From Candidatus Levyibacteriota bacterium (GTDB lineage: Bacteria > Patescibacteriota > Microgenomatia > Levybacterales > UBA12049), in contig PLZJ01000002.1 in the NCBI GenBank assembly GCA_003152105.1, positions 597,682-661,681 on the forward strand: DNA of 64,000 nucleotides, read 5' to 3'. This document shows positions 3,339 to 18,373 of this stretch, one piece after another. A program made the position numbers and the translations under genes. Numbering within the stretch: position 1 is the first letter of the stretch; each line of letters begins with the position of its first letter. The notes beneath the pieces were generated by a model. That model was not told the origin of the DNA and did not search any database. It saw only the letters and a program-made list of their open reading frames with translations.

Positions 3339-6300
3339 ATGAAAAAATATTTCTTGTTTGGCATTCTTTCTATTATTCTCACTACAATTTGGTTTCATAA
3401 AGGATTACTGATTGGACTTGGTGAATCTGGAGTTTCTTTTTATAATGTCAAAAATCAGTTAGCTATCACATCACATACATGGTCTCCTTTTGCTCTTGGC
3501 ATATTTCCAGGATTAACTATTTGTACTTTGCCATTATTTTATTTTGCAAATTTACTTTCACAAATAGGCATATCTGATGTGGGGACACAAGCTATTATAT
3601 TTGGATTATGTTTATTTTCGTCATTTATCGGCACAACGCTTTTGACGAATTATTTATTTGTCAAATCTAAAAATAAAGAAGTTATTAGTATATTTACTGG
3701 TTTATTTTATGGTTTAAATTTAGTATCTTTAGTTACAGCATGGAATAGATTGCAATATCCTTTCCTTTTTTTCTATATAGTAATTCCCTTTGCGCTCTAC
3801 ACGTTTATAAAAGCATGTGATCAAAAAAAATATGCTTATGCAATTCTCCTCAATGTAATCTTTTTAGTATTTTCTTCAGCATTCGCAGCCATTCCTTTTA
3901 TTGAACTAATATGGGGATTACTGCTGGCTTACTCTTTTTTTATTGTTTTAGTTAATTGGAAAAAAGATCCTTCAAAAGCGTTGTTTGCAATACTATTTTA
4001 TATACTTTCAGTTACTATCTGGGCATTATTTAATTCCTGGTGGTTACTTCAGATGATCAAAGCCATAGAAAGTGTTCTTGGTGAAAATGTGTACAGTATC
4101 AAAGGAGATATTGGAACACTGAATATTTTAAGTCAAGAACAAGGCAATTTATCTTTTGTATATAGATTAATGAATCAACAATTTTTTGATTCAATGAAAA
4201 CTGTATGGGGTAATTTTTATAATACGCCTCCATTTATAGTGATAAGTTATATTATTCCGTTTTTAGCATTTTCCCCCTTAATTATAAAAAAAAAGCCAGG
4301 TTTTATATATTTTTTCTTAGGACTTTCTCTTCTCGTAATTTATTTTATTAAAGGTTCAAATCCACCCTTTGGAGGAATATATCTATTTCTATTTTCACAT
4401 TTAAAAATATTTGAAGTGTTCTGTTCTTCATTTGAAAAATATGGCTTGGTTCTTCCGCTTGCATACGCTCCCTTAATTGGGTTTACGTTGTTACTACTAT
4501 TTACCACTTTAAAAAATAGTATTTCTGTTAGAAAGACTTATTTTATTTTTACATCTCTTGGTCTTTTACTTTTCGTAGTACTTGTTTACCCCTTTTGGAA
4601 TAATTTAATATTTACGTACAACTTACCGCCTGAAAATAACCCTTCAATAGGGGACTATGTTTCGGTTCCTATAGATTATCAAAGTGCAAATACTTTTTTA
4701 CACAAAGATACTGATATTTACCGGGGTATGGCATTACCAATAGATGGTGAAGGCATGACATATGAATGGAAATATGGATTTAATGGTGTTGAATATTTAA
4801 ATGATATGTTTGGTATACCTTTTCTTTCTTTAGGAACAAGTACAATTCCTAATCTACAAAATATTACCGATCAATTTAATTACACACTATTTAAGTACCC
4901 CTTCTCGTTTACAAAAATGATGACATTATTAAATGTAAAATATTTATTAGTTAGATCTGATATTGATTACAAAAATAGAAATACTACAAATCCACATATT
5001 CTTACCGACTATATTAATGGCAGGTCGATAGCTAACTTATCTTTTGAAAAGCAGTTTGGAAAACTCGCATTTTATAAAAATATGTCATTTATACCCAAAA
5101 TATATACTGCTAAAAATTTATTTGCAGCACCACAATCACTTTACTTTACCGATATATTTACATTAAATAACTTTCAAAACAAAGATGTTGTTGTAAATAC
5201 GAATGAAAATGAGTTTGGAGACAAATTGGCACAAAGTGCTTTATCTGAAACTATTTTACCCAAGAACGTTATAAATTCTGATCAAGTTCCAAAAATTACC
5301 CTAACACAAGCTGAACTTCAAATTCCCATGTCGAGGTATGGTGCTGATTCTCGATTTTTTCCACTAATTAGATTTAAAGAAAATCTCAGTAGATGGGGTA
5401 TTGTAGACAGCCAAGACAAATTATTATATGACATTAATATTTCATATAAGAGACTAGGAGAATTACAACGAATTGCATTAGCAAATAATCTAGTTGGAAT
5501 AGGTCCTGCTGAAAATGAATATATTTCCAGTTTAGGAATAATCGAAAAAACTATTAATTCTCAAGATAGTGCTACCTTGAGTGAAAACATCGACTCAATT
5601 AGAGCGCAATTTCTTGCTGAACAGGTTATATTAAATAATTTAATAAATTCTCTACATCCTGGAGGCATTAGATCTTCTTTGCAATCTACAAGAAGTGTAT
5701 TTACGGAATTTGAAAAACATATATATGTTATTTCTTTATACCCATCACAAATTAAAAATTCTATACAAAGTGAAAATATCTATCGGTTTATGGCCCCTTT
5801 GGATGGTAATTATCAAGTCTTACTAAGACAACTCAACTACCAGCAGTATTACAAAACGCAAAACCAAGTTACTATTCAAATTAACAACAAGATTATTATC
5901 GTTACTCCAACGTATAAGAACGGATTCATTTCATATGGGACATTTATGCTTGACAAAGGATTAAATGAATTCCATATTTTAACTCCGATAACACTAAATT
6001 TAATAAAGGAAAATTCTTCTTTGCCTCTTACACTTATTGCAACTTCCCAAAAAACTGAAATTAGAAAAACCTTTCATCTAAAAAATTTTGATCCATACTC
6101 ACAGTATGTTGCTTCGTTTGATTATAAAATCACAAACGGCGGAGGTGCAACAATCGAGGCAGAAAGCGATGTAGATGCGGTAAAAGATGGAAAAAATGTT
6201 CCCGAATGGAGTCAAGGAATAAGTGGTTCAGTTGGAAATTTTAATTGGCAACATGTCGCTTATAGAGTTTATCCATATCACACAGCCACAACGCAATCAA

Positions 6301-6839
6301 TCTCATTTGTTGTTAATGCAACTAACTCTTGCATTGCAGATAATCAACAAGATATGCGTTTGGTTAAAATGTGTAGTACAAATAAATCATTTTATACCAA
6401 ATATACTCATAATACTGAATTTATATTTAAAAATGTCAAACTTGAAAAAATCTTCCCATCTGACTTAATGCTTTTTAAACAAAATATGAAAACTACTGTA
6501 ATAAAAAACCCGACAATTACGTTTAATGAAATTAATGGTTCAACATATATAGTGCATATTAAAAATGCAATAAATCCTTATAATCTTGTTTTTTCAGAAA
6601 ATTTCAATCCAGATTGGCAAGTTATTTATAATAATGCGCAAATAGCCACCTCAAAACATTTCATGGTTAATTCATTTGCGAATGCATGGCAAATTGATAA
6701 AACTGGCACGTATAATATAACAGTTAGATTTCAAGATGAAAATCTATTTTTGTTTGGAAAGGTACTATCATTACTTTCTATAATTTGTTCAGTTAGCATT
6801 TTTACAGTCTATAAAATTTGGAAAAAGAAAAAAACATAA
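3339..6839 (+). CDS. YfhO-like polytopic membrane protein (GT-C-like architecture), 1166 aa
   Basis: About 12 N-terminal TM helices, roughly 700-aa extracytoplasmic region, C-terminal module FSENFNPDWQVIYNN...GTYNITVRF followed by a terminal TM helix. This topology and C-terminal motif are typical of the YfhO family. Confidence 0.45.
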   Translation: MKKYFLFGILSIILTTIWFHKGLLIGLGESGVSFYNVKNQLAITSHTWSPFALGIFPGLTICTLPLFYFANLLSQIGISDVGTQAIIFGLCLFSSFIGTTLLTNYLFVKSKNKEVISIFTGLFYGLNLVSLVTAWNRLQYPFLFFYIVIPFALYTFIKACDQKKYAYAILLNVIFLVFSSAFAAIPFIELIWGLLLAYSFFIVLVNWKKDPSKALFAILFYILSVTIWALFNSWWLLQMIKAIESVLGENVYSIKGDIGTLNILSQEQGNLSFVYRLMNQQFFDSMKTVWGNFYNTPPFIVISYIIPFLAFSPLIIKKKPGFIYFFLGLSLLVIYFIKGSNPPFGGIYLFLFSHLKIFEVFCSSFEKYGLVLPLAYAPLIGFTLLLLFTTLKNSISVRKTYFIFTSLGLLLFVVLVYPFWNNLIFTYNLPPENNPSIGDYVSVPIDYQSANTFLHKDTDIYRGMALPIDGEGMTYEWKYGFNGVEYLNDMFGIPFLSLGTSTIPNLQNITDQFNYTLFKYPFSFTKMMTLLNVKYLLVRSDIDYKNRNTTNPHILTDYINGRSIANLSFEKQFGKLAFYKNMSFIPKIYTAKNLFAAPQSLYFTDIFTLNNFQNKDVVVNTNENEFGDKLAQSALSETILPKNVINSDQVPKITLTQAELQIPMSRYGADSRFFPLIRFKENLSRWGIVDSQDKLLYDINISYKRLGELQRIALANNLVGIGPAENEYISSLGIIEKTINSQDSATLSENIDSIRAQFLAEQVILNNLINSLHPGGIRSSLQSTRSVFTEFEKHIYVISLYPSQIKNSIQSENIYRFMAPLDGNYQVLLRQLNYQQYYKTQNQVTIQINNKIIIVTPTYKNGFISYGTFMLDKGLNEFHILTPITLNLIKENSSLPLTLIATSQKTEIRKTFHLKNFDPYSQYVASFDYKITNGGGATIEAESDVDAVKDGKNVPEWSQGISGSVGNFNWQHVAYRVYPYHTATTQSISFVVNATNSCIADNQQDMRLVKMCSTNKSFYTKYTHNTEFIFKNVKLEKIFPSDLMLFKQNMKTTVIKNPTITFNEINGSTYIVHIKNAINPYNLVFSENFNPDWQVIYNNAQIATSKHFMVNSFANAWQIDKTGTYNITVRFQDENLFLFGKVLSLLSIICSVSIFTVYKIWKKKKT

Positions 6840-6841
6840 AC

Positions 6842-7183
6842 ATGAATTTTACAAACACATTTGGATCTGTTTTAGAAAAAATACATAGCAAGCTCTTAAT
6901 ATTTCTTTATAAATATGTATTTTTCTATACGTATCTGCAATATTTTTCCAATGATATTTTTCAACTTGTAATTTTAGCACTATATGTTTTTGCGATTTTT
7001 AAATTACATATTTCAGGGAAAACCACTGCGATTATTGGATTTGTATTATTAATTGTGACAATGATGTTAAATATTTTTGGAGAAGATGATTATGCTGGAA
7101 TTGTATCGCAATATGTATTTTTGTTCTTTGTCATTGCATTTTTGCAACAATTCTACCATTATATTAAGTATGAAAATAAATAA
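6842..7183 (+). CDS. small hypothetical membrane protein
   Basis: About 3 hydrophobic segments. ATG 6842 is preferred over track ATG 6818, which overlaps the upstream gene; no recognisable domain. Confidence 0.3.
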   Translation: MNFTNTFGSVLEKIHSKLLIFLYKYVFFYTYLQYFSNDIFQLVILALYVFAIFKLHISGKTTAIIGFVLLIVTMMLNIFGEDDYAGIVSQYVFLFFVIAFLQQFYHYIKYENK

Positions 7184-8360
7184 GTACTTTTTTATTTTCA
7201 TACTATTATTTCTCATTGTAACCGTATTTAATATACTACTTAGTTCTTCTTTATTGCAGGGTGGTGATTATAATCCTCCTATTCCACAAATAGTGACTAT
7301 AGGTACGAGTATGTTTGGGTGGTGTGATTATCTCAATCTAGGTAACAATTGCGTTGCAATTAATCTTCATGCACTTCCGATGTGGAATATAATGGCGTTT
7401 ACGAGCACATTTTTCTTTTTCTCACCAGTTATTTTAGAAAGATTATTTTGGTGGTTTCCTTTTATCGTTTTAGCTTATTTTTCATCAGCATATTTGTTTA
7501 TAAAAATATTTCCAAATAATCAGTATTATGTATTAAGTTCAGTGCTTTACACGGTGAATACATATATATTAATGGTTATAGGAGGGGGACAGATAGCGGG
7601 GATTGGATTAGCGTATGCATTATTGCCTTTACTTTTAGTTTCTGTTCTTCAAGCATTTGAAAAAAGAACAATACTCTCATCATTAAATGTAGGAATTTTA
7701 TTCTCAATCTGCGTATTGCTTGATCTTCGTATTGCCTACATCAGCGCAGTTGTATGTTTTTGTTTATTTCTATGGAAATGTTTGTTTATTAAACAGAAAA
7801 TGCAAATATTAAAACATGGAATAGTACTATGTATAACCATATTCACTGTTGTATTTTTAATGCATGCTTATTGGATTCTTCCAGCATTACTATTACATAA
7901 AGACCCCATTACGCAACTTGGCGCTGCTTATAGTTCCACAAATGCCGTTTCCTATTATAGCTTTGCAACTTTCGAAAATACAATTAGTTTACTACACCCA
8001 AATTGGCCGGAAAATATTTTTGGAAAAACGTATTTTATGAAACCTGAATTCTTACTATTACCATTTTTTGCCTTTCTTTCTCTCATTTTTGCAAATAAAT
8101 CGCAATCTGAAAATAATAACAGAAAATCTACGATGTATATATTATTTTTTGCACTACTTGCGTTACTTGGTGCATTTTTAAGTAAAGGAACTAATGAGCC
8201 TTTTGGACAGATATATTCTTGGATGTTTTCCCATTTTCCAGGTTTTAATGCCTTTCGAGATAGCACTAAGTGGTATGTATTAATATCCTTAAGTTACGCT
8301 ATGTTAATTCCTTACACTATTTCGCAGTTATGTGAAAAGATTATGGGTAAGTTAAAATAA
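7170..8360 (+). CDS. polytopic membrane protein, paralog of the N-terminal TM domain of the 3339..6839 protein
   Basis: 10-12 TM helices. PFGQIYSWMFSHFPGFNAFRDSTKWYVLISLSYAMLIPYT aligns with PFGGIYLFLFSHLKIFEVFCSSFEKYGLVLPLAYAPLIGFT of the 1166-aa protein. Start taken at in-frame ATG 7170 (MKINKYFF) rather than 7077. Confidence 0.5.
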   Translation: MKINKYFFIFILLFLIVTVFNILLSSSLLQGGDYNPPIPQIVTIGTSMFGWCDYLNLGNNCVAINLHALPMWNIMAFTSTFFFFSPVILERLFWWFPFIVLAYFSSAYLFIKIFPNNQYYVLSSVLYTVNTYILMVIGGGQIAGIGLAYALLPLLLVSVLQAFEKRTILSSLNVGILFSICVLLDLRIAYISAVVCFCLFLWKCLFIKQKMQILKHGIVLCITIFTVVFLMHAYWILPALLLHKDPITQLGAAYSSTNAVSYYSFATFENTISLLHPNWPENIFGKTYFMKPEFLLLPFFAFLSLIFANKSQSENNNRKSTMYILFFALLALLGAFLSKGTNEPFGQIYSWMFSHFPGFNAFRDSTKWYVLISLSYAMLIPYTISQLCEKIMGKLK

Positions 8361-8368
8361 AATAAATT

Positions 8369-9268
8369 ATGAAAACAACACCAATTATTATATTGCATGG
8401 ACTTGGAGATAATTTGCTTCTATTTCCTGTACTTCTTGATTATTCATTGCAACATAAATCAAAACTAAATTTAGTAGTAGCGAAAAATTATGGATCAAAA
8501 TCATTTTGGGAAAATATACGTTTTGTAAATTCAGTAAGAGAAATAACTTTGGATGCACACCCAAGATTTTGGAATATTTTTTATTTTTATCTTATTGATT
8601 ATGCTAAAAATATACAAAAAGCTAAAAAGATAACTCATGATCAGCATTTTATATTTTTGAAAATATCAGTGCTACCACTATTTGTAGAAAATATATTATC
8701 TTCAATTTTTAATCGTCATAAGTTAACCCTTGCATATAATGAGTTGCATATAACTCCTAAAAATACAATAAATACAATTAGTCTTGAAGATTATTTTAAA
8801 ATTCCAAAATTCAGTACAGTTCTCCGATGGCTAAAGGCAAGAGAATTAAAAAAATTTGAGTATATTTGTATACATTACAAAACTTTTTCAGAAAGTAAAT
8901 CTATTGACAAACAACTTATTAATTTATTTATTGCAACATATCCTAAAATAAGCTTTATCATAATAATGACAAAGCAAATGCAAGATAATGAGGAAAATAA
9001 TGGTGGATTAATAGAGCAAAAAAATGCCTATTATGCAACAGAGTTTGATGTCGTGGAATTATATTATGTATTAAAGTTTGCCAAAAAAAATATTGTGATC
9101 GATTCTTCTATTATGCATCTTGCTTGTTATACGAAAACTCCTACTTTAGCCATTTTTAAAGTAAAGAAAATTAAACCAAAGCTTATACTACCAGAGGCAA
9201 AAAATATCACCGTTAAACAAATGTATACAAGTCATGGTATCAAACAAGCGATGAGTGCATTTATATAA
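8369..9268 (+). CDS. glycosyltransferase family 9-like (heptosyltransferase fold)
   Basis: N-terminus IILHGLGDNLLLFPVL resembles GT9 RLSSLGDVILTTPVL; C-terminal IVIDSSIMHLACYTKTPTLAIF resembles GNDSGxMHLAAAxGxPxVALFG. Confidence 0.5.
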   Translation: MKTTPIIILHGLGDNLLLFPVLLDYSLQHKSKLNLVVAKNYGSKSFWENIRFVNSVREITLDAHPRFWNIFYFYLIDYAKNIQKAKKITHDQHFIFLKISVLPLFVENILSSIFNRHKLTLAYNELHITPKNTINTISLEDYFKIPKFSTVLRWLKARELKKFEYICIHYKTFSESKSIDKQLINLFIATYPKISFIIIMTKQMQDNEENNGGLIEQKNAYYATEFDVVELYYVLKFAKKNIVIDSSIMHLACYTKTPTLAIFKVKKIKPKLILPEAKNITVKQMYTSHGIKQAMSAFI

Positions 9269-9271
9269 TAT

Positions 9272-10120
9272 ATGAGACAACTAATAAACCGAATATATAG
9301 ATATATTAAAATTGATCTAGATTATTTATTCTTACCATATCCGTTACAGACAAAAATAGTAACTATTTGTCGTACAAACATAGCTGTAATCAAAAACATT
9401 ATAACCAAAAAAGATCAAGGGAATATTACTATACATAATCAAGTAATTACATATGAAACTGTGTTTGCTACAAAAACTTTTCTTGCCGCATGCTATGATT
9501 TTTATGTCACAACACAAAAGTTAACAATTTTTTCCAAAAATCCGGTAATATTGGATATTGGAGCAAATATTGGACAATTTGCATTTGCAGTAAAGTCATT
9601 TTATCCAGACGCTTCTCTTTACTCTGTAGAACCAGATGTGGATATATTTGCCATTCTTAAGAAAAACTTTTCTCATAGTAAAAATATGAAGTTATTTAAT
9701 GTTGCGATAGCTAGTAATAATAATTCCAGGACATTTTACAAAAGTAAAAAGTTTTCAGAATGGTCCACACTCGAGACCCCGAAAGACCATGAAAACTATA
9801 TTACTACAAAGGTAGATACTACTACAGGTGATACCCTTTTTAAGGAGCTTTTGAATATCGATTTATTAAAAATTGACGTTGAAGGAGCTGAACGAGAAGC
9901 AATTGTTGGAATGAGTAAAACGCTTTCGAAGGCAAAATATGTGCTTATTGAAGTTTCTCTTCAGCGTGACCCAATTGATAAGAACACGAGTTTATTATTG
10001 AAACATTTATTACAGAGCGGATTTTCATTATTTAGAATAGGTAGGATATTTACATATGCATCGGGGCAAGAGCAGGGAGCAGCAGATTTATTATTTAAAA
10101 ATAAATTGCTAAAAAAGTAA
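9272..10120 (+). CDS. FkbM family methyltransferase
   Basis: ILDIGANIGQFAF motif typical of Methyltransf_21 / FkbM. Confidence 0.7.
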   Translation: MRQLINRIYRYIKIDLDYLFLPYPLQTKIVTICRTNIAVIKNIITKKDQGNITIHNQVITYETVFATKTFLAACYDFYVTTQKLTIFSKNPVILDIGANIGQFAFAVKSFYPDASLYSVEPDVDIFAILKKNFSHSKNMKLFNVAIASNNNSRTFYKSKKFSEWSTLETPKDHENYITTKVDTTTGDTLFKELLNIDLLKIDVEGAEREAIVGMSKTLSKAKYVLIEVSLQRDPIDKNTSLLLKHLLQSGFSLFRIGRIFTYASGQEQGAADLLFKNKLLKK

Positions 10121-10121
10121 T

Positions 10122-10982
10122 ATGAAAAACATCATCAGATATTTTTGCATCACAGTCTTTTTACTTTATTTTTTTTGGCTTATTCGTTCTGCAATCTTAG
10201 GTCAATTAACTGGCATTTTTGTATCTCGTCCCGTACCTCGGGATTATACAGATTTAAATAATTATTTGATTTCTCAACATGTATTTTATAGAACCTTATG
10301 GATACCAACAATTCAACGATTTGCCTACTATTCTTCAGACCACCCAGCAATAGATGGGTATACTTTTTTTCAAGCTTATGATCCAATAAGTGAAGTCAGA
10401 AAATTACAACTTTCAAATTCAGAAAATGCTTTGAGAAATGCTTCAGTTAAATATGTTATTGTCCCAGTAGATACTGAAGGTGAACTATTTTTACAAAATA
10501 GAAAATATTCAAGCGCACTTTATAGTAAAACCAAAAATGCAGTATCTACTATTTCATATTTAGTGCCAGTACAAAGATTTGGTTCTTTAGGTGTGTTTGA
10601 AGTAAAAAACTACCATAATCATTTTTGGTCTACTAACAAAAAGTTACTCGTCTCATTTACGCAGTTTAATCCAACAAAATATACTGTTTCACTAACTAAT
10701 GCACATGTTGGAGACAGGATTATATTCTCTGAAGCATTTGACCAAAATTGGATTGCAAATATAGGTAACACATCTATCAGCCCTATAAAATATCAGGGAT
10801 TATATAATGAGTATGTTCTACCAAAAGGGGGTAATTTTCACTTTACAGTTGTATATAAAATACAACAATGGGTACAAATAGGGCAAGTTGTATCTATGAG
10901 CACAGTTTTTGTTTTATTATTGTTTTATCTCTATATACTCAGATTTAAAATAGGTACGTTTATAAGATATATTAGAAAATAA
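10122..10982 (+). CDS. membrane protein carrying a YfhO-like C-terminal module
   Basis: N-terminal TM helix. C-terminal IFSEAFDQNWIANIGN...GGNFHFTVVYK plus a terminal TM helix matches the C-terminus of the 3339..6839 protein (VFSENFNPDWQVIYNN...GTYNITVRF + TM). Confidence 0.45.
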   Translation: MKNIIRYFCITVFLLYFFWLIRSAILGQLTGIFVSRPVPRDYTDLNNYLISQHVFYRTLWIPTIQRFAYYSSDHPAIDGYTFFQAYDPISEVRKLQLSNSENALRNASVKYVIVPVDTEGELFLQNRKYSSALYSKTKNAVSTISYLVPVQRFGSLGVFEVKNYHNHFWSTNKKLLVSFTQFNPTKYTVSLTNAHVGDRIIFSEAFDQNWIANIGNTSISPIKYQGLYNEYVLPKGGNFHFTVVYKIQQWVQIGQVVSMSTVFVLLLFYLYILRFKIGTFIRYIRK

Positions 10983-11064: not shown

Positions 11065-12006
11065 ATGATTAGTTACGTAATCCCAGTTATGAATGAAGAA
11101 GAAAGCATAGATGCTTTTTATGCTGAATTATATAAAGTAATTTTACAAATAATAGAAAAGTATGAAATTATCTTTATAGATGATGGATCTACAGACAATT
11201 CATTGGTACTACTTAAAAAACTTGTAAAATCCAACAAATCAGTTCGAGTATTTTCGTTCCGCAGAAATTTAGGAAAAGCTGAGGCATTAACATTTGGATT
11301 CGCAAAAGCTAGTGGCGATTATATTGTGACACTTGACGCAGATTTACAAGATATACCTTCTGAAATTCCAAAACTTTTAGCACTTGGCAAAACAGGCGTA
11401 GAGGTTGTAACGGGATGGCGTAAAAAGAGAAAAGATAAAAAATATATGGTATATATTTCTCGATTATTTAATTTATTTGTAAATAAATTATTTAATACTG
11501 GAATTCATGATTATAATTGTGGTTTAAAATTATACACACGTGATGCGGCAAAGAGTTTACAATTATACGGTGGTTTATATAGATTTATCCCCTTTTTAGT
11601 TTACCAACAAGGATTTACCATTGGAGAAGTAGCAGTTGAGCACCAGCCAAGAAAATTTGGAAAATCAAAATACGGTTTTTACAAATGGAGAGATTTACCA
11701 GATATTATCACTATATTATTTTTAGCTAAATATAGTAAGCGACCTTTACATTTTTTTGGCATAATTGGGATCTTTATGAGTAGTATTGGTGTAATTGTTC
11801 TATTATATTTAACATACGTTCATTATTTTATGCATCAACCAGTTGGAACAAGGCCTTTACTTTTTATGGGTATTTTGTTTGTAATTGCAGGACTACAAAT
11901 ACTTTTTACTGGGTTTCTTGCAGATTTAATGCTTAACATTGCACAAGGGCCAAAATATTTAGATGAATCCAAAATGCATTTTCCTCTAAAATTTTCGACT
12001 GATTAA
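11065..12006 (+). CDS. GT2 polyprenol-phosphate glycosyltransferase (DPM-synthase / GtrB / ArnC-like)
   Basis: VIPVMNEEESI, DDGSTDNS and DADLQD motifs plus two C-terminal TM helices. Confidence 0.8.
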   Translation: MISYVIPVMNEEESIDAFYAELYKVILQIIEKYEIIFIDDGSTDNSLVLLKKLVKSNKSVRVFSFRRNLGKAEALTFGFAKASGDYIVTLDADLQDIPSEIPKLLALGKTGVEVVTGWRKKRKDKKYMVYISRLFNLFVNKLFNTGIHDYNCGLKLYTRDAAKSLQLYGGLYRFIPFLVYQQGFTIGEVAVEHQPRKFGKSKYGFYKWRDLPDIITILFLAKYSKRPLHFFGIIGIFMSSIGVIVLLYLTYVHYFMHQPVGTRPLLFMGILFVIAGLQILFTGFLADLMLNIAQGPKYLDESKMHFPLKFSTD

Positions 12007-12007
12007 G

Positions 12008-12235
12008 ATGAAAATTCAGGATATTGGTTTTTTTCTTATATTAATTATAATAGTTTGGAAAAGAAATAGTACGTCTGCAGTCATCCTTGGTTTGTTTTCT
12101 TTATTAATTGCAGTTCCTCTTTTTGAAGAAAAGATTTTTTTTACTGCTGAAAGATTAACGTGGTATGCTGCTGGGTTTTTCTTATTGGCTATTATAGTAA
12201 TTTTGTATACACTAATAAGAGATAAGAAAAATTAA
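12008..12235 (+). CDS. small membrane protein (75 aa)
   Basis: 2-3 TM segments, immediately downstream of the GtrB-like GT2, a position typical of small membrane partners such as DUF2304/GtrA-like proteins. Confidence 0.35.
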   Translation: MKIQDIGFFLILIIIVWKRNSTSAVILGLFSLLIAVPLFEEKIFFTAERLTWYAAGFFLLAIIVILYTLIRDKKN

Positions 12236-12778
12236 ATGAAAATTGGAATAGATATTTCCCAAACAGCATATCAAAATACTGGAGTAGCCAACTATTTATC
12301 AAAATTAATTCATTCTCTGCTCGAAACAGATAAATCTAATGACTATGTATTCTTTTTTTCTTCCTTACGAAAAAAAATACCAAAACAGCTAAGAGAATTT
12401 ATAGTAACTACAGGGGGTAACCGAGTAACTATTAAGTCATATCCATTTCCTCCGCTTTTTTATGAATTTTTCTGGAACAAATTACACATTTTAAGCATAG
12501 AACGATTTATCGGAAATACAGATATATTCATTACTTCTGATTGGAGTGAGCCCCCGGTTCTAAAAACTAAAAAAGCTACTATAATATATGATTTAATAGT
12601 TTATAAATATCCCCATGAAACAGATCAAAGAATTGTTAAAGCACAAAGAAGAAAACTTTACTGGGTAAAAAAAGAAAGCGATCTAATATTTTGTATATCC
12701 AAATCTACTATGCAGGATGTTATTAAGCTGCTCCATATAGATAATAATAAGCTAAAAGTTATTTATCCCGGATTATGA
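12236..12778 (+). CDS. GT4 N-terminal (Glyco_trans_4-like) domain only, possible remnant of a tandem duplicate
   Basis: MKIGIDISQTAYQNTGVANY... parallels the N-terminus MIIGIDGNEANVTNRVGIGEY of the next gene. It stops after the linker (VIYPGL*) with no Glycos_transf_1 catalytic domain. Confidence 0.4.
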   Translation: MKIGIDISQTAYQNTGVANYLSKLIHSLLETDKSNDYVFFFSSLRKKIPKQLREFIVTTGGNRVTIKSYPFPPLFYEFFWNKLHILSIERFIGNTDIFITSDWSEPPVLKTKKATIIYDLIVYKYPHETDQRIVKAQRRKLYWVKKESDLIFCISKSTMQDVIKLLHIDNNKLKVIYPGL

Positions 12779-13908
12779 TTATTGGTATAGATGGAAATGA
12801 AGCAAATGTTACAAATAGAGTGGGTATTGGTGAATATGCATACCAATTACTCCTTTCTTTTTATGAGAAGGCAACCAAAGATATAAGTTTTCGGATATAT
12901 CTTAAAAATAAGCCTGAGTTTGACATGCCGAAACAAACAGATTTTTTTAAGTATGAAATAGTGGGACCTTCTAAAGCATGGACACAAATTGCTTTACCAA
13001 TCGCACTATATTTTTCTAAAAACCGACCAGATATTATCTTTACTCCTGGTCATTATGCTCCACGTTTTTCTCCTGTTCCGAGAGTTATTTCAATTATGGA
13101 TGTAGCATATCTTCGATTTCCTGATTTATACAATAAGGATGATTTGTATCAATTGAAGCATTGGACAAAGTACTCTGCTTTAAAAGCAAAAAGGATATTT
13201 ACTATTTCTCAGTCGAGCAAAAATGATATAATTAAGTACTACAATGTTGTGCCAAAAAACGTGGATGTAACGTTTTTAGGAATTAATGAAAACAAGCACA
13301 CAATAACTACCACTATGAAAGAAATTGAACAAAAATTTGGAATAAGCGGGAAATATATTTTATTTGTTGGCACGCTTCAGCCAAGGAAAAATATCGTCAA
13401 GCTAATTGAAGCATTTTCACTTGTTAAAAAAAATAAAGAAGCAGAGAGAGTAATTGATAATGTAAATATGGTTATTGTTGGCAAAAAAGGATGGAAGTAT
13501 GAGGAAATTTTAGAGGCTCCAAGCGTTTATGGAGTTAAAGAATGTGTATCCTTTTTAGAATTTGTTGATGATGATGAACTGACTACATTGTATAAAAATG
13601 CGTTGTGTTTTATTTTACCAAGTTTATATGAAGGATTTGGGCTTCCCATTCTTGAAGCAATGCGAAATGATTGTCCTGTAATAACAAGCAATATAAGTTC
13701 TTTGCCAGAAGCGGGAGGAGATGCAGCATTATATGTTGACCCAAATAGTAGCGAGGACATTGCAAAAACGCTAACTCGTGTTATTTCAGACGAAAAACTC
13801 AGAAAAAGCATGATAGAAAAAGGGAAAACGCAAGTTAAAAAATTTAGTTGGAATAAAACAGCAAGTGAAACACTAGAAGGATTAGAGGAGGTAGTTCATG
13901 CGAGATAA
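12775..13908 (+). CDS. glycosyltransferase family 4 (Glycos_transf_1)
   Basis: Full two-domain GT-B; C-terminal EGFGLPILEAM motif. Confidence 0.8.
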   Translation: MIIGIDGNEANVTNRVGIGEYAYQLLLSFYEKATKDISFRIYLKNKPEFDMPKQTDFFKYEIVGPSKAWTQIALPIALYFSKNRPDIIFTPGHYAPRFSPVPRVISIMDVAYLRFPDLYNKDDLYQLKHWTKYSALKAKRIFTISQSSKNDIIKYYNVVPKNVDVTFLGINENKHTITTTMKEIEQKFGISGKYILFVGTLQPRKNIVKLIEAFSLVKKNKEAERVIDNVNMVIVGKKGWKYEEILEAPSVYGVKECVSFLEFVDDDELTTLYKNALCFILPSLYEGFGLPILEAMRNDCPVITSNISSLPEAGGDAALYVDPNSSEDIAKTLTRVISDEKLRKSMIEKGKTQVKKFSWNKTASETLEGLEEVVHAR

Positions 13909-14491: not shown

Positions 14492-15330
14492 TAATACTTT
14501 CATATAACACAAAAGACTTGCTAACATCATGTCTTGACTCAATTAAAAATCATTTACATAAAGGTGATTTTGAAATAATTGTAGTAGATAATGCATCTTC
14601 AGACGATACTTCGTTAATGATCAAAAAAGAGTTTAAAGAAGTAATGTTAATTGAAAGTAAGGAAAATTTAGGCTACGCAAAAGGCATGAACTTAGGAGTC
14701 TCAAAAGCAAAAGGAGAATATTTACTACTTCTAAATTCAGACACGAAATTAAAAGATGATATTTTACCTCTTTTTTTGAATAACTATTCAACTTTTGAAA
14801 AACTTGCCGTAATTGGTCCAAGACTTGAGAATAGCTTAGGAAATAACGACGGTTCATATGGTAGCTTTTATACGATTTTTTCTGTATTTTATTTGTTATT
14901 TGGATCTCATTTTGTATCAAATAAAAATGAAGCAAGTCATAAGGCAAGATATGTTGATTGGGTCAGTGGTGGGTGTATGTTTATAAAAAGAGAATTGTAT
15001 GATCAAAATAATGGATTTGATCCACGTTTATTTATGTATGGCGAGGATGTCGAATTTTGTTACCGTTTGCATAAAAAAGGATTTAACGTTCTTTATGACC
15101 CATCGATTGTAGTATTTCATGTTGGCCAAGGAAGTTCAAATAGATCCTTTGCCATAATACAGATCTACAAAGGCATATTGTATTTCTTTAGAAAACATAA
15201 ACCAAAATGGCAATATGCGCTAATTTATTTCATGTTGAAATCAAAAGCAATTATACTTTTATCTATAGGAAAAATGTATAATAATGAATATCTCATACAT
15301 ACATATGGGCAAGCTCTTGCGATATCTTGA
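14479..15330 (+). CDS. glycosyltransferase family 2
   Basis: VSIIILSYNTKDLL...IIVVDNASSDDT, LLLNSDT (DxD). Confidence 0.75.
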   Translation: MVSIIILSYNTKDLLTSCLDSIKNHLHKGDFEIIVVDNASSDDTSLMIKKEFKEVMLIESKENLGYAKGMNLGVSKAKGEYLLLLNSDTKLKDDILPLFLNNYSTFEKLAVIGPRLENSLGNNDGSYGSFYTIFSVFYLLFGSHFVSNKNEASHKARYVDWVSGGCMFIKRELYDQNNGFDPRLFMYGEDVEFCYRLHKKGFNVLYDPSIVVFHVGQGSSNRSFAIIQIYKGILYFFRKHKPKWQYALIYFMLKSKAIILLSIGKMYNNEYLIHTYGQALAIS

Positions 15331-18300
15331 CAATAACATTGTTAAAATTGGAATTTGCTTTCTAATTCTTTTTGTCGCGCTTTATCCAAAGCTACCTAGC
15401 GTTCATATTATTCGTACGTATGTATATATTCGACTTGAAGATTTTGGAATAGCTGCGGTTGCTATAATTTGGTTCATTCAACTTCTTAGAAGAAAAGTTG
15501 GGCTGCCTCCAAAGTTGCTGGCTTTTCCTATAGTTTTATATTGGATAATTGGACTTGCATCCCTTATTGCCTCACTTTTATATTTCGGACCTCCCACGTT
15601 AAATTTTTTCCCACACATAGCATTTCTTGAATATCTAAGAAGAATAGAGTACATGATTTTATTTTTTATCGCGTTTTCAACAATTAAGAACAAAAAAGAT
15701 GTTAGAGATTATTTTTTTATTCTATGCACTACAGTACTTTTTGTTTGCCTATATGGAATTGGGCAAAAGTTCTATGGAATATTATGGTTACATTTCCCCG
15801 CGTTAAAGAGTGCAAATTTTTGTTTTCCTTCCTTTCAAACAGGTAACGAGCAATTTGCAAAAGGATATGCGCTTTGTTTGCCATCTGATGGAAGAATGAC
15901 TTCAACATTTGGAGGCCATTACGATTTAGCAGCATATATGGTATTTATTATTCCTATTTTAATCACTGTATTTCTTGTTGTTAAAAAAAGGAGAACACAA
16001 ATATTACTTGCTATTTTATCAGTACTATCTTTAACAATGTTAATTTTTACTTCTTCCCGCGTGTCGTTTATTGCTTATTTAGTTGGTGTTGTATCAGCGC
16101 TTATTTTCTTTAAGAAAAAATGGTTTATATTACCTGTTTGTATTGTAAGCATTGTTCTTCTTTTTGTGTTTAGTAGTTCTACGATAAAACGATTTGAACA
16201 AACAATCAGGTTTACCTCTGTTGTAACTGATAGTGAAGGAGACATTGTAGGGGAAGTTTCTAATGTGAATACAAATGGTAAAAAAGTGGTAAAAGGAAAT
16301 ATTCCATCGCAAGCACTTCCAGAAGGTTCAGTTATAATTGGACTTCCTACTAAATCTATATCTACTTCGTCTGCAACGGTACAAAATAGTCTTACTCCTG
16401 AGCAGGCAAGATTGCTTAGGCTACAAAATGGAGGCTATCAACTTTCCTCAGTTAAAGGAAGCTTCCTTATACAAAAAGTATTAACGCTTGATATTTCATT
16501 TACAACACGCTTCCAAGCTGAATGGCCTAGGGCTTGGAATTCATTTTTGACTGATCCGCCTCTTGGAACAGGGTTTTCAACATTAACTCTGGCAACTGAC
16601 GGTGATTATTTACGAATGCTTGGTGAATCAGGATTCTTAGGCGCAATTTCTTATTTGTTTGTATTTTTAATGTTAGGAATTGCACTTGCTTCTATATATA
16701 AAGATATTTCGTCTCCATTTAATAAATCGTTTATTATTGGAATTGCAGGAGGAATGATTGGGATATTTATAAATGCAATATTTATTGATGTTTTTGAAGC
16801 GTCAAAAGTTGCTGAAAGTATGTGGATGATTTTGGGAATTGGACTAGGTACACTACTTCTGTATCAGAAAAAGCCTATTCCATATGCGCTGCAGCTTAAA
16901 AATGTGTTGCTTACAAAAACTTTCTACTGCGTATATCTTCTAGCAATCGTTGCTGTAGTTTTTTCATCTTATATCTCCTCTTTCTTTGTTGCGGATGATT
17001 TTACATGGTTACATTGGGTAGCGACTTCTTCTTCATCAGATATTCTTCGTTTCTTTACTAACTCAAGCGGATTTTTTTACAGACCACTTGATAAAACTAT
17101 TATGTATTTTCTCTATACCTTATTTTCATTTAATCCTCAAGGATATCACCTATTTACACTCATTAGTCATCTTATTGCAGCAATAGGGGTATTTTTCCTT
17201 GCTCGAAAATTCTTGAAATATACATTTTTTAGTTTTATTGCAGGTGCTATATTTATACTTTTACCATCACAATCTGAAAATATCTATTGGATTTCAACTA
17301 TTTCAACTACAATTGCTACCTGTTTTATTTTTTACGGGTTATTAGCATGGATTAATTACTTAGAGAGTGAGAAGCAGAAATTTTACATACTATCCTTATT
17401 TCTTGGAATATGTTCATTTTTCTCTTATGAAATTGCAATTACTTATCCATTCCTGATCATATTAGTAACCCTATTTTTCAAAGGTAAGTCAATTCGTAAA
17501 AATGCTTACGCAGTATTTATTCCATTTGTAGCTCTTATTCCAATTTATTATATTATTAGAATCGTTACTCACGCTTTTTCTGGAGGAGGAGATTACTCTT
17601 ATAGTGTTATCCATTTATTGCCAAATATCATTGGAAATTATATAGGGTATCTTGGATTATATATTGTTGGAGAGCGCTTTATTTCACTATACAATCCACT
17701 TCGGTTGGTCTTTAAGAGTCAAATGCCACTTGTTATGATCCTGATTGTATTATTTATTCTTTTAATTGCATACGTTTGGTACTTTTATAAGAAACAAATT
17801 CAAAAAATTGTAGTTACGCAAACTGGTAAATTGTTTATTTTTGGCATGCTATTTATTGCAATTTCTTTACTATTATATTTAGGTCTTGGAAATATATCGC
17901 AACGATATGGATATTTAGGAGCATTTGGTTATTCACTTATAATAGCCTTATTTTTACAAAAAATTAGTCTGTTATTAAAAAATCCTTGGAAAATAATTAT
18001 TATGGCAATACTTCTCATATCTTTATTTACCTTTTATTACAATGAACAAAAAAGCGTTGAAGCTGAATGGTTAAAGGCAGCAAGTATTACAGAAGATACA
18101 TTAGCATTTTTCAGACTTGATTATTTCACTTTAAACAATTCTGACTCCGTTTATTTAGTGAATGTTCCAATTAAATATCAAAATGCCTGGGTGTTTCCAC
18201 TGGGCGTTTCAGATGCACTCTGGTTTTTATACAAAGATAACGAACCTAAATTAATAGAAGTAACTACAATTGCACAAGCGCAAAAAGATGCTAAAAACTT

Positions 18301-18373
18301 TTATAATACAAAATTATCTAAAGCATATATTTTCAGTTTTGGTGATGACGGCTATATCTACAAAGTCAAATAA
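15284..18373 (+). CDS. fusion membrane protein: O-antigen ligase/polymerase-like (Wzy_C) N-terminal half + GT-C-like polytopic C-terminal half, 1029 aa
   Basis: Wzy_C signature NSFLTDPPLGTGFSTLTLATDGDYLRMLGESGFLGAISYLFVFL at about aa 430-480. The second half has more than 10 TM helices with an ADDFTWLHW loop motif reminiscent of GT-C enzymes. Confidence 0.55.
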   Translation: MNISYIHMGKLLRYLDNNIVKIGICFLILFVALYPKLPSVHIIRTYVYIRLEDFGIAAVAIIWFIQLLRRKVGLPPKLLAFPIVLYWIIGLASLIASLLYFGPPTLNFFPHIAFLEYLRRIEYMILFFIAFSTIKNKKDVRDYFFILCTTVLFVCLYGIGQKFYGILWLHFPALKSANFCFPSFQTGNEQFAKGYALCLPSDGRMTSTFGGHYDLAAYMVFIIPILITVFLVVKKRRTQILLAILSVLSLTMLIFTSSRVSFIAYLVGVVSALIFFKKKWFILPVCIVSIVLLFVFSSSTIKRFEQTIRFTSVVTDSEGDIVGEVSNVNTNGKKVVKGNIPSQALPEGSVIIGLPTKSISTSSATVQNSLTPEQARLLRLQNGGYQLSSVKGSFLIQKVLTLDISFTTRFQAEWPRAWNSFLTDPPLGTGFSTLTLATDGDYLRMLGESGFLGAISYLFVFLMLGIALASIYKDISSPFNKSFIIGIAGGMIGIFINAIFIDVFEASKVAESMWMILGIGLGTLLLYQKKPIPYALQLKNVLLTKTFYCVYLLAIVAVVFSSYISSFFVADDFTWLHWVATSSSSDILRFFTNSSGFFYRPLDKTIMYFLYTLFSFNPQGYHLFTLISHLIAAIGVFFLARKFLKYTFFSFIAGAIFILLPSQSENIYWISTISTTIATCFIFYGLLAWINYLESEKQKFYILSLFLGICSFFSYEIAITYPFLIILVTLFFKGKSIRKNAYAVFIPFVALIPIYYIIRIVTHAFSGGGDYSYSVIHLLPNIIGNYIGYLGLYIVGERFISLYNPLRLVFKSQMPLVMILIVLFILLIAYVWYFYKKQIQKIVVTQTGKLFIFGMLFIAISLLLYLGLGNISQRYGYLGAFGYSLIIALFLQKISLLLKNPWKIIIMAILLISLFTFYYNEQKSVEAEWLKAASITEDTLAFFRLDYFTLNNSDSVYLVNVPIKYQNAWVFPLGVSDALWFLYKDNEPKLIEVTTIAQAQKDAKNFYNTKLSKAYIFSFGDDGYIYKVK

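Follow-up and report, generated by a model that had tools for sequence, protein, structure and literature searches.

Do two membrane-protein genes that lie on the same strand, with two unrelated genes between them, encode one enzyme in two pieces, the debris of a broken gene, or two proteins with separate roles? This question is raised by a 64,000-nucleotide stretch of DNA (the window) from Candidatus Levyibacteriota bacterium, a Patescibacterium (contig PLZJ01000002.1, positions 597,682 to 661,681 of the forward strand), and it concerns the GT-C glycosyltransferases (GTs), which take part in building or decorating the cell envelope across all domains of life. Within a tightly packed run of plus-strand genes of ~30% G+C, we found an N-half of 396 amino acids (aa; 7170..8360), a divergent GT9-family glycosyltransferase (299 aa; 8369..9268), an FkbM-family S-adenosylmethionine (SAM) methyltransferase (282 aa; 9272..10120) and a C-half of 286 aa (10122..10982), with gaps of 8, 3 and 1 nt flanking the two inner genes. 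An earlier note had given correct coordinates for these four open reading frames (ORFs), which all lie on the + strand, and had read the outer two as a YfhO-like paralog of the 1166-aa protein encoded upstream (3339..6839, +), either a natural two-piece enzyme or a duplicate split by insertion or deletion. Of these two options the natural two-piece enzyme proved the better one, and the family turned out to be another.

A protein search with the N-half returned 622 relatives, and lengths and C-half content were taken from 120 matches listed among these. The lengths fell into two classes, 101 proteins of 626-693 aa and 19 of 380-416 aa (one of the latter, P0070, a truncated fragment), with none between. 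By BLASTP, the C-half matched all 101 long homologs at ~40% identity to their C-terminal ~280 aa (E 1e-45 to 1e-72), in a region that begins where the homology to the N-half ends, at about residue 397-410; a word-indexed protein search with the C-half returned only itself, and its homology was shown instead by this comparison with the long N-half matches. Residues 1-396 of the N-half correspond to residues 1 to ~400, and residues 1-286 of the C-half to residues ~400 to 680, of the 101 fused proteins, colinearly and with no overlap or loss. Because the sum of 396 and 286 aa, 682 aa, fits the length of the fused homologs, and because the long homologs hold both parts back to back, the ORFs at 7170-8360 and 10122-10982 are one ~680-aa family member cut in two. 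Both ORFs are full length, each with its own ATG and no internal stops, and the start at 7170 agrees with the N-termini of the homologs. For annotation, this argues for linking the two ORFs as one enzyme, and not as two hypothetical proteins or a pseudogene.

The family is found in Patescibacteria (Levybacteria, Gottesmanbacteria, Saccharimonadales and unclassified members) and is encoded by a single ORF in about 85-95% of relatives. Pfam and NCBIfam gave no family at a useful level for the N-half, the C-half or the 1166-aa protein, which by itself gave no Pfam match, and a Pfam scan of the halves and 20 N-half homologs was likewise empty. The N-half carries the motifs GD (32-33), D185/R187, HPNWPEN (276-282), KGxNxPFGxxY (339-349) and PGFxxFRDxTKW (357-368); of 102 sequences, at least 90% have G32-D33 directly after the first transmembrane helix (TM1), and it is invariant in 20 N-halves. 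The length of family members varies in related loci, from ~1050 aa (L053, L066) to 514-592 aa (L028, L061, L067, L069, L075, L079, L080), in that some variants carry an extra ~370 aa at the C-terminus and others end after the alpha/beta domain, without the beta-sandwich and the last TM helix.

We modeled the two halves with AlphaFold2 (AF2) as a single-chain concatenation built with 101 homologs, which gave a mean predicted local distance difference test score (pLDDT) of 91.6 and a predicted template modeling score (pTM) of 0.91. In this model, the N-half forms ten TM helices (from residues 5-24 through 365-392), and the C-half provides TM11 (398-421), a periplasmic alpha/beta 'soluble GT-C' domain (436-545), a beta-sandwich (553-641) and a terminal helix, TM12 (644-681). 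The polytopic N-terminal domain of ~11 TM helices that characterizes the GT-C fold is present, and Foldseek against the PDB returned AftD (6w98) first (E 1.8e-8), followed by STT3, AglB, PglB, DPY19 and ArnT, with 18 matches at E<=1e-3. An AF2 model of the 1166-aa protein (pLDDT 88.6) had AftD as its top PDB matches as well (6wby/6w98, E 1e-14), and the profile of its family matched AftD 6w98 at E 1.3e-5. The AftD family PF11847 was found in relatives of the large paralog only, in 24 of 39 homologs and, in another set, 7 of 18, with no match at E<=0.1 in the N-half, the C-half, the 1166-aa protein or 20 N-half homologs; searches of the N-half profile and the full-family profile against PDB sequences gave nothing useful. 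Since AftD is the top Foldseek match for both models and PF11847 occurs in the large-protein homologs, we assign the halves and the 1166-aa protein, by their predicted folds, to AftD-like GT-C enzymes, the ~680-aa family being a minimal version. The name YfhO, by contrast, does not apply: the PF09586 hidden Markov model (HMM) gave no match at E<=0.1 in the 1166-aa protein, either half, 20 N-half homologs or 18 large paralogs, it was never listed in the precomputed Pfam entries of 159 homologs, and AftD/PF11847 is nearest by both fold and HMM.

The combined halves share their architecture with AftD of Mycobacterium abscessus (6W98; PF11847, GT-C_AftD/DUF3367). In AftD, the first 11 TM helices make the GT-C fold (bioRxiv 10.1101/2019.12.22.885152). 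Both proteins have such an 11-TM core, which is followed by the periplasmic alpha/beta 'soluble GT-C' domain, a beta-sandwich and one TM helix leading back to the membrane. In both, an acidic residue follows TM1 and a conserved Lys precedes the PFG loop. They differ in that identity is ~11%, and in that the full AftD architecture of core, soluble domain, three carbohydrate-binding modules (CBMs), beta-sandwich, TM12 and TM13-16 is reduced in the ~680-aa family, which lacks the three CBMs and TM13-16. AftD is moreover an actinobacterial protein, whereas the split enzyme is encoded in two pieces by a Patescibacterium, and the likeness does not imply arabinofuranosyl transfer from decaprenylphosphoryl arabinofuranose (DPA). 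STT3, AglB and PglB resemble the combined halves (Foldseek E 1e-5 to 5e-3) in their GT-C fold and in having a periplasmic domain at the C-terminus that makes the active site complete, but similarity in sequence is remote. The combined halves contain no WWDYG-type motif, while STT3, AglB and PglB use polyprenyl-diphosphate oligosaccharide donors and have a single polypeptide as their catalytic subunit.

How, then, do the halves relate to the 1166-aa protein? The similarity that the note had seen in both is real, and a pairwise check found it significant: BLASTP gave E 5e-9 for the N-half (38% identity over 86 aa around the PFGxIY...F motif) and E 1e-6 for the C-half (25% over 93 aa at the C-terminus), with a further weak match between C-half residues 31-62 and residues 438-467 of the large protein, and hhalign of the ~680-aa against the ~1150-aa family reached probability 100 and E 4e-53 over 583 columns at 18% identity. 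In that alignment, residues 1-601 of the joined halves match residues 3-632 of the large protein, with C-half residues ~30-200 opposite ~440-632. The large-protein region without a counterpart in the halves accordingly spans ~420 aa (~633-1055), not the ~700 aa proposed before. The idea that the 1166-aa gene was duplicated, and that the copy lost its middle and was then split, also fell, as the halves belong to a separate ~680-aa family in which this middle was never present: in each of the 101 long homologs the two halves stand back to back. Derivation of the halves from the 1166-aa gene by deletion is ruled out by the ~18% profile identity and by the ~680-aa architecture being the norm in more than 100 genomes; the profile comparison puts the homology beyond doubt, and the ~680-aa family is an old paralog of the ~1150-aa family, the 1166-aa gene not being a parent copy.

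The extra region of the large paralog (residues ~655-993) is modeled as a long helical bundle followed by jelly-roll beta-sandwiches, with weak Foldseek matches to GH101 and Cry-toxin sandwich domains, and relatives of this paralog carry DUF5667 (11 of 18) and, in one case, CBM_4_9. In two of the split loci the upstream large membrane protein is likewise present as two ORFs (L085 179-3485, 739+367 aa; L086 1688-5004, 766+339 aa), so that a related GT-C gene may have undergone a fission as well.

The position of the cut proved to be the same wherever the family is split. A scan of GTDB species representatives yielded 221 loci with a relative, and the best 80 of these comprised 76 with a single ORF (mostly of the ~680-aa form, some shorter or longer and some cut by a contig end) and 4 with a split (L008, L029, L032, L077); seven further split loci were read from assemblies, among them L001, L002 and L083-L086. 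Eleven split loci besides the window share the break site. All short homologs end at one alignment position, 12-16 residues past the conserved LIPY of TM10, and in every split locus the C-half begins with MK(K/N) directly before TM11. The break falls in a short, basic, variable-length cytoplasmic linker between TM10 and TM11, which in fused proteins has 0 to ~20 residues. Wherever the gene is split, in the window and in the 11 other loci alike, the C-half follows the N-half on the same strand at a distance of 0-2 genes. Eight of the eleven have adjacent or overlapping halves, with an overlap of 4-11 nt or a spacing of 1 nt in L002, L008, L029, L032, L077, L084 and L085; a 78-nt gap separates the halves in L083, and a Methyltransf_11 gene lies between them in L001 (7203-8030) and L086 (6143-6967). 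Split pairs remain split across 88, 75, 70, 67 and 57% identity; the N-half of P0003 is 88% identical to that of L001, on a 2.4-kb contig from which the P0003 arrangement cannot be read. Because the same break point occurs in many divergent lineages and persists across 57-88% identity, the split state is both recurrent and stable.

These comparisons leave little room for an assembly or sequencing artefact, be it a false stop codon or a contig that is chimeric. In favour of one is that the scaffold was assembled from a metagenome, but an identical C-half was found on 3 assembled contigs of more than 0.2 Mb each, with the arrangement present in 3 assemblies, the halves are separated by 1.76 kb holding two complete genes, the stop of the N-half and the start of the C-half fall where other split loci have theirs, and independent metagenomes (L001, L086) show the same kind of arrangement. 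We therefore regard an artefact as extremely improbable.

Split forms nest among fused ones in a bootstrapped neighbour-joining (NJ) tree of the combined N and C sequences, and for this reason fission, or re-fusion, appears to have occurred several times. L002 and L032 fell in a clade with three fused members (bootstrap 100), L008 grouped with the fused P0061 (bootstrap 70) and L086 with the fused L033 (bootstrap 74). The window grouped weakly (bootstrap 48) with L001, which has the split and the methyltransferase, and with the fused L090/P0001, P0002 and P0009, so that its split and that of L001 may have arisen either together or separately. The Methyltransf_11 proteins of L001 and L086 are 48.5% identical, while the GT-C halves of these loci are not sisters in the tree (41.5% identity in N, 39% in C), and in the fused sister of L086, L033, a homolog of the methyltransferase (38%) is encoded ~5 kb upstream. 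Double recruitment, an old arrangement or cassette transfer may account for the related methyltransferases at the same place in the two loci.

Could the window nevertheless hold a dead gene, that is, a fused GT-C gene disrupted by the insertion of the GT9 and FkbM genes, with the two ORFs as decaying remnants? The closest locus, L090, would be compatible with this, for its 645-aa gene is fused and its GT9 homolog (52%) sits elsewhere, ~6 kb downstream in a variable block; the halves of the window also lie at the low end of family identity. The upstream order of L090 is exactly that of the window (78% identity for an epimerase, 59% for a GT2, 63% for a methyltransferase, 37% for the large GT-C protein and 43% for a small ORF). 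Yet gene death accounts poorly for two full-length ORFs with their own ATGs and no internal stops, which are cut exactly at the site used in 11 other split loci, most of them without an insert. Residue conservation speaks in the same direction: counting positions conserved in at least 90% of fused members (77 in the N part, 39 in the C part), the halves keep 74/77 and 36/39, compared with fused means of 74.5 and 37.0. An order of N-half, methyltransferase and C-half moreover persists in L001 and its relative P0003 (the contig of the latter being too short for inspection), and homologous methyltransferases lie between the halves of both L001 and L086. We thus consider a dead gene unlikely. The L090 locus also provides the unsplit version with the same upstream order that the note had suggested looking for, and it qualifies the claim of recent remodeling: only the identity of the inserted genes appears specific to the lineage of the window, whereas the split itself is recurrent and long-lived.

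The two genes in the gap are indeed unrelated to the GT-C halves, as had been noted. The FkbM assignment is solid, with PF05050 at 62 bits (cutoff 22.7; E 1e-16) and TIGR01444 at 98.7 bits (cutoff 37.7; E 3.8e-28), and this protein is unrelated to the methyltransferase between the halves of L001. For the gene at 8369-9268, the proposed GT9 likeness stood at the level of the family and not of the single protein, which scored below the PF01075 cutoff (17.6 bits against 22, E 0.0025). Among 1.84 billion representative proteins it has 24 relatives, PF01075 is found at E<=0.01 in 22 of the 24 sequences of the alignment (best E 3.7e-21), and the family profile matches the PDB entries 3TOV (3e-18), WaaF (1e-13) and WaaC (8e-8), which supports, at family level and by profile comparison, a rare and divergent GT9 of the GT-B, heptosyltransferase-like type. 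No homolog of it was found in 82 related loci, and its three closest relatives sit outside GT-C halves. The insert (8361-10121) has no flanking direct or inverted repeats, and promoter-like and terminator-like sites are no commoner than in shuffled sequences, so that this analysis pointed neither to a mobile element nor to separate transcription units.

The window is the third split locus with cargo, and its cargo, GT9 plus FkbM, differs from that of the other two. We infer that the GT9 and FkbM proteins are tailoring enzymes carried as operon cargo and not the cause of gene death. A broader idea, which we put forward tentatively as possible though improbable, is that the catalytic TM core and the acceptor-facing ectodomain are naturally separable subunits whose cytoplasmic junction serves as a recurrent slot for glycan-tailoring genes (Methyltransf_11 in L001/L086, GT9 and FkbM here); the enzymes encoded in the slot, which are cytoplasmic, might also bind to the two split ends on that side of the membrane. 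If true, this would provide a modular way to diversify the surface glycans of Patescibacteria.

What the two ORFs most probably encode, judging from sequence and model, is a two-subunit GT-C enzyme, co-transcribed with two tailoring genes lodged in its gap. Fission of an AftD-like ~680-aa GT-C gene in the TM10-TM11 linker would have left two products. The N-half would supply TM1-10, the conserved acidic residue after TM1 and conserved periplasmic loops, and the C-half TM11, the beta-sandwich, the last TM helix and the periplasmic alpha/beta domain, which in AftD-type enzymes lies as a cap over the active-site cavity. The four genes are presumably transcribed together, given their narrow spacing, and each of the two polypeptides would enter the membrane on its own, with the split end on the cytoplasmic side. 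Within the membrane the two would then join, by way of TM11 and the periplasmic cap, to form one active enzyme. AftD has the essential residues K39, D41, E251, K361 and D474, the last in its periplasmic domain (bioRxiv 10.1101/2019.12.22.885152). By analogy, and not by superposition, D33 of the N-half may be equivalent to AftD D41; with GD33, D185 and K339 in the N-half and conserved C-half residues in the cap, the AftD-equivalent residues would be divided between the two proteins, and the active site would on this analogy need both polypeptides, with TM11 tying them together.

Several points weigh against this two-subunit enzyme. The mean identity of the window halves to the family is the 6th and 8th lowest of 102, which could reflect some relaxed constraint. 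The model was computed as one concatenated chain and not as two, and the assembly and activity of the halves are predictions from sequence and modeling, while donor and acceptor are guessed from gene context. Finally, the deep nodes of the NJ tree are poorly resolved, which makes the number and direction of fission and fusion events uncertain.

The halves might instead act independently, the N-half as a minimal GT-C or lipid-handling protein of its own, as in MmpA/Rv0226c, and the C-half as a separate anchored glycan-binding protein or as the partner of another GT-C protein such as the 1166-aa paralog. Stand-alone proteins that resemble only the N-terminal TM part of AftD do exist in Corynebacterineae (MmpA/Rv0226c/NCgl2761; PMC8698533), and the N-half weakly matches the NCBIfam MmpA model (E 2e-7) through a shared KG..PFG...FRD..K loop region; at 30 bits against a cutoff of 210, however, it is not a member, and MmpA differs from it in having no partner C-half gene and a role in trehalose-lipid transport. 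It has also been speculated, in a review (PMC8035078), that acceptor binding in small GT-C enzymes may fall to a second protein. Against independence stand the close linkage of the halves in 12 of 12 split loci (one strand, the C-half 0-2 genes further on), the encoding of TM11, a part of the 11-TM core of AftD, with the C-half, and the essential AftD residue D474 in the periplasmic domain, which suggests that an active site needs both parts. Independent halves thus seem unlikely to us.

A candidate source for the donor of the two-subunit enzyme lies directly downstream. The 313-aa protein encoded at 11065-12006 (+), a GT2 with C-terminal TM helices, matches in the PDB the ArnC entry 9hwj_A (E 4e-38), GtrB 5ekp (E 2.5e-26) and DPMS 5mlz (E 2e-13), is ArnC/GtrB-like over its full length, and by analogy with these enzymes it probably makes a lipid-linked sugar donor. 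Among the 82 related loci, 71 ORFs encode a homolog of it, most often immediately after the ~680-aa gene. The reassembled enzyme would transfer a sugar from the polyprenyl-phosphate donor made by this ArnC/GtrB-like protein to an extracytoplasmic glycan or protein. A GT2 with an adjacent GT-C gene is the layout of the multi-component transmembrane glycosylation scheme (PMC8035078), and CsbB/GtcA/YfhO, GtrA/GtrB/GtrC and ArnC/ArnT resemble the locus in placing a membrane GT2 beside a GT-C enzyme that acts outside the membrane (PMC8035078). The locus differs from these systems in that its GT-C protein belongs to neither the YfhO nor the PMT_2 family and is itself split. No GtrA-family flippase was recognized by the Pfam scan.

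In full-text literature searches, we met with no GT-C catalytic subunit described as naturally split, and to our knowledge GT-C catalytic units have been described as single polypeptides. The recurrent TM10/TM11 split indicates that the TM core can be produced apart from TM11 and the periplasmic cap, and the split enzyme offers a ready-made system for testing which part binds the donor and which the acceptor, an idea that Rismondo and Grundling raised as speculation (PMC8035078). The split is not a new principle; it is of interest for the mechanism of GT-C enzymes and for the envelopes of Patescibacteria, which are almost unstudied and in which this AftD-like family is widespread and was previously unannotated.

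Between the large AftD-like gene and the N-half lies a small conserved membrane ORF (6818..7183, +; ~95-120 aa) with 3 predicted TM segments and no Pfam match, which overlaps the N-half start by 14 nt, as its counterpart does in L001. Its true start is probably downstream of 6818. Homologs occupy the same position in L001 (5718-6014, 46%), L090 (9667-9975, 43%) and L083 (4733-5014), and the protein could be a candidate accessory subunit or flippase. A near-perfect palindrome at 7167-7204, whose 19-nt arms are 95% complementary and meet without a spacer, covers both the N-half ATG and the last part of the small ORF, and may have a role in translational coupling.

Further downstream, a 75-aa ORF (12008-12235) stands between the ArnC-like GT2 gene and the GT4 genes, with counterparts of 71-75 aa in L001, L090 and L091. 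It is followed by a stand-alone 180-aa GT4 N-terminal domain ORF (12236-12778), which is kept as a separate gene in related loci (59 ORFs), and by a complete 377-aa GT4 gene (12775-13908). A 1029-aa polytopic protein (15284-18373) has a weak match to Wzy_C (O-antigen ligase/polymerase; E 7e-5) and is found at 41-50% identity in many related loci; because this Wzy_C-like protein is so widely conserved, the gene cluster probably builds a surface polymer.

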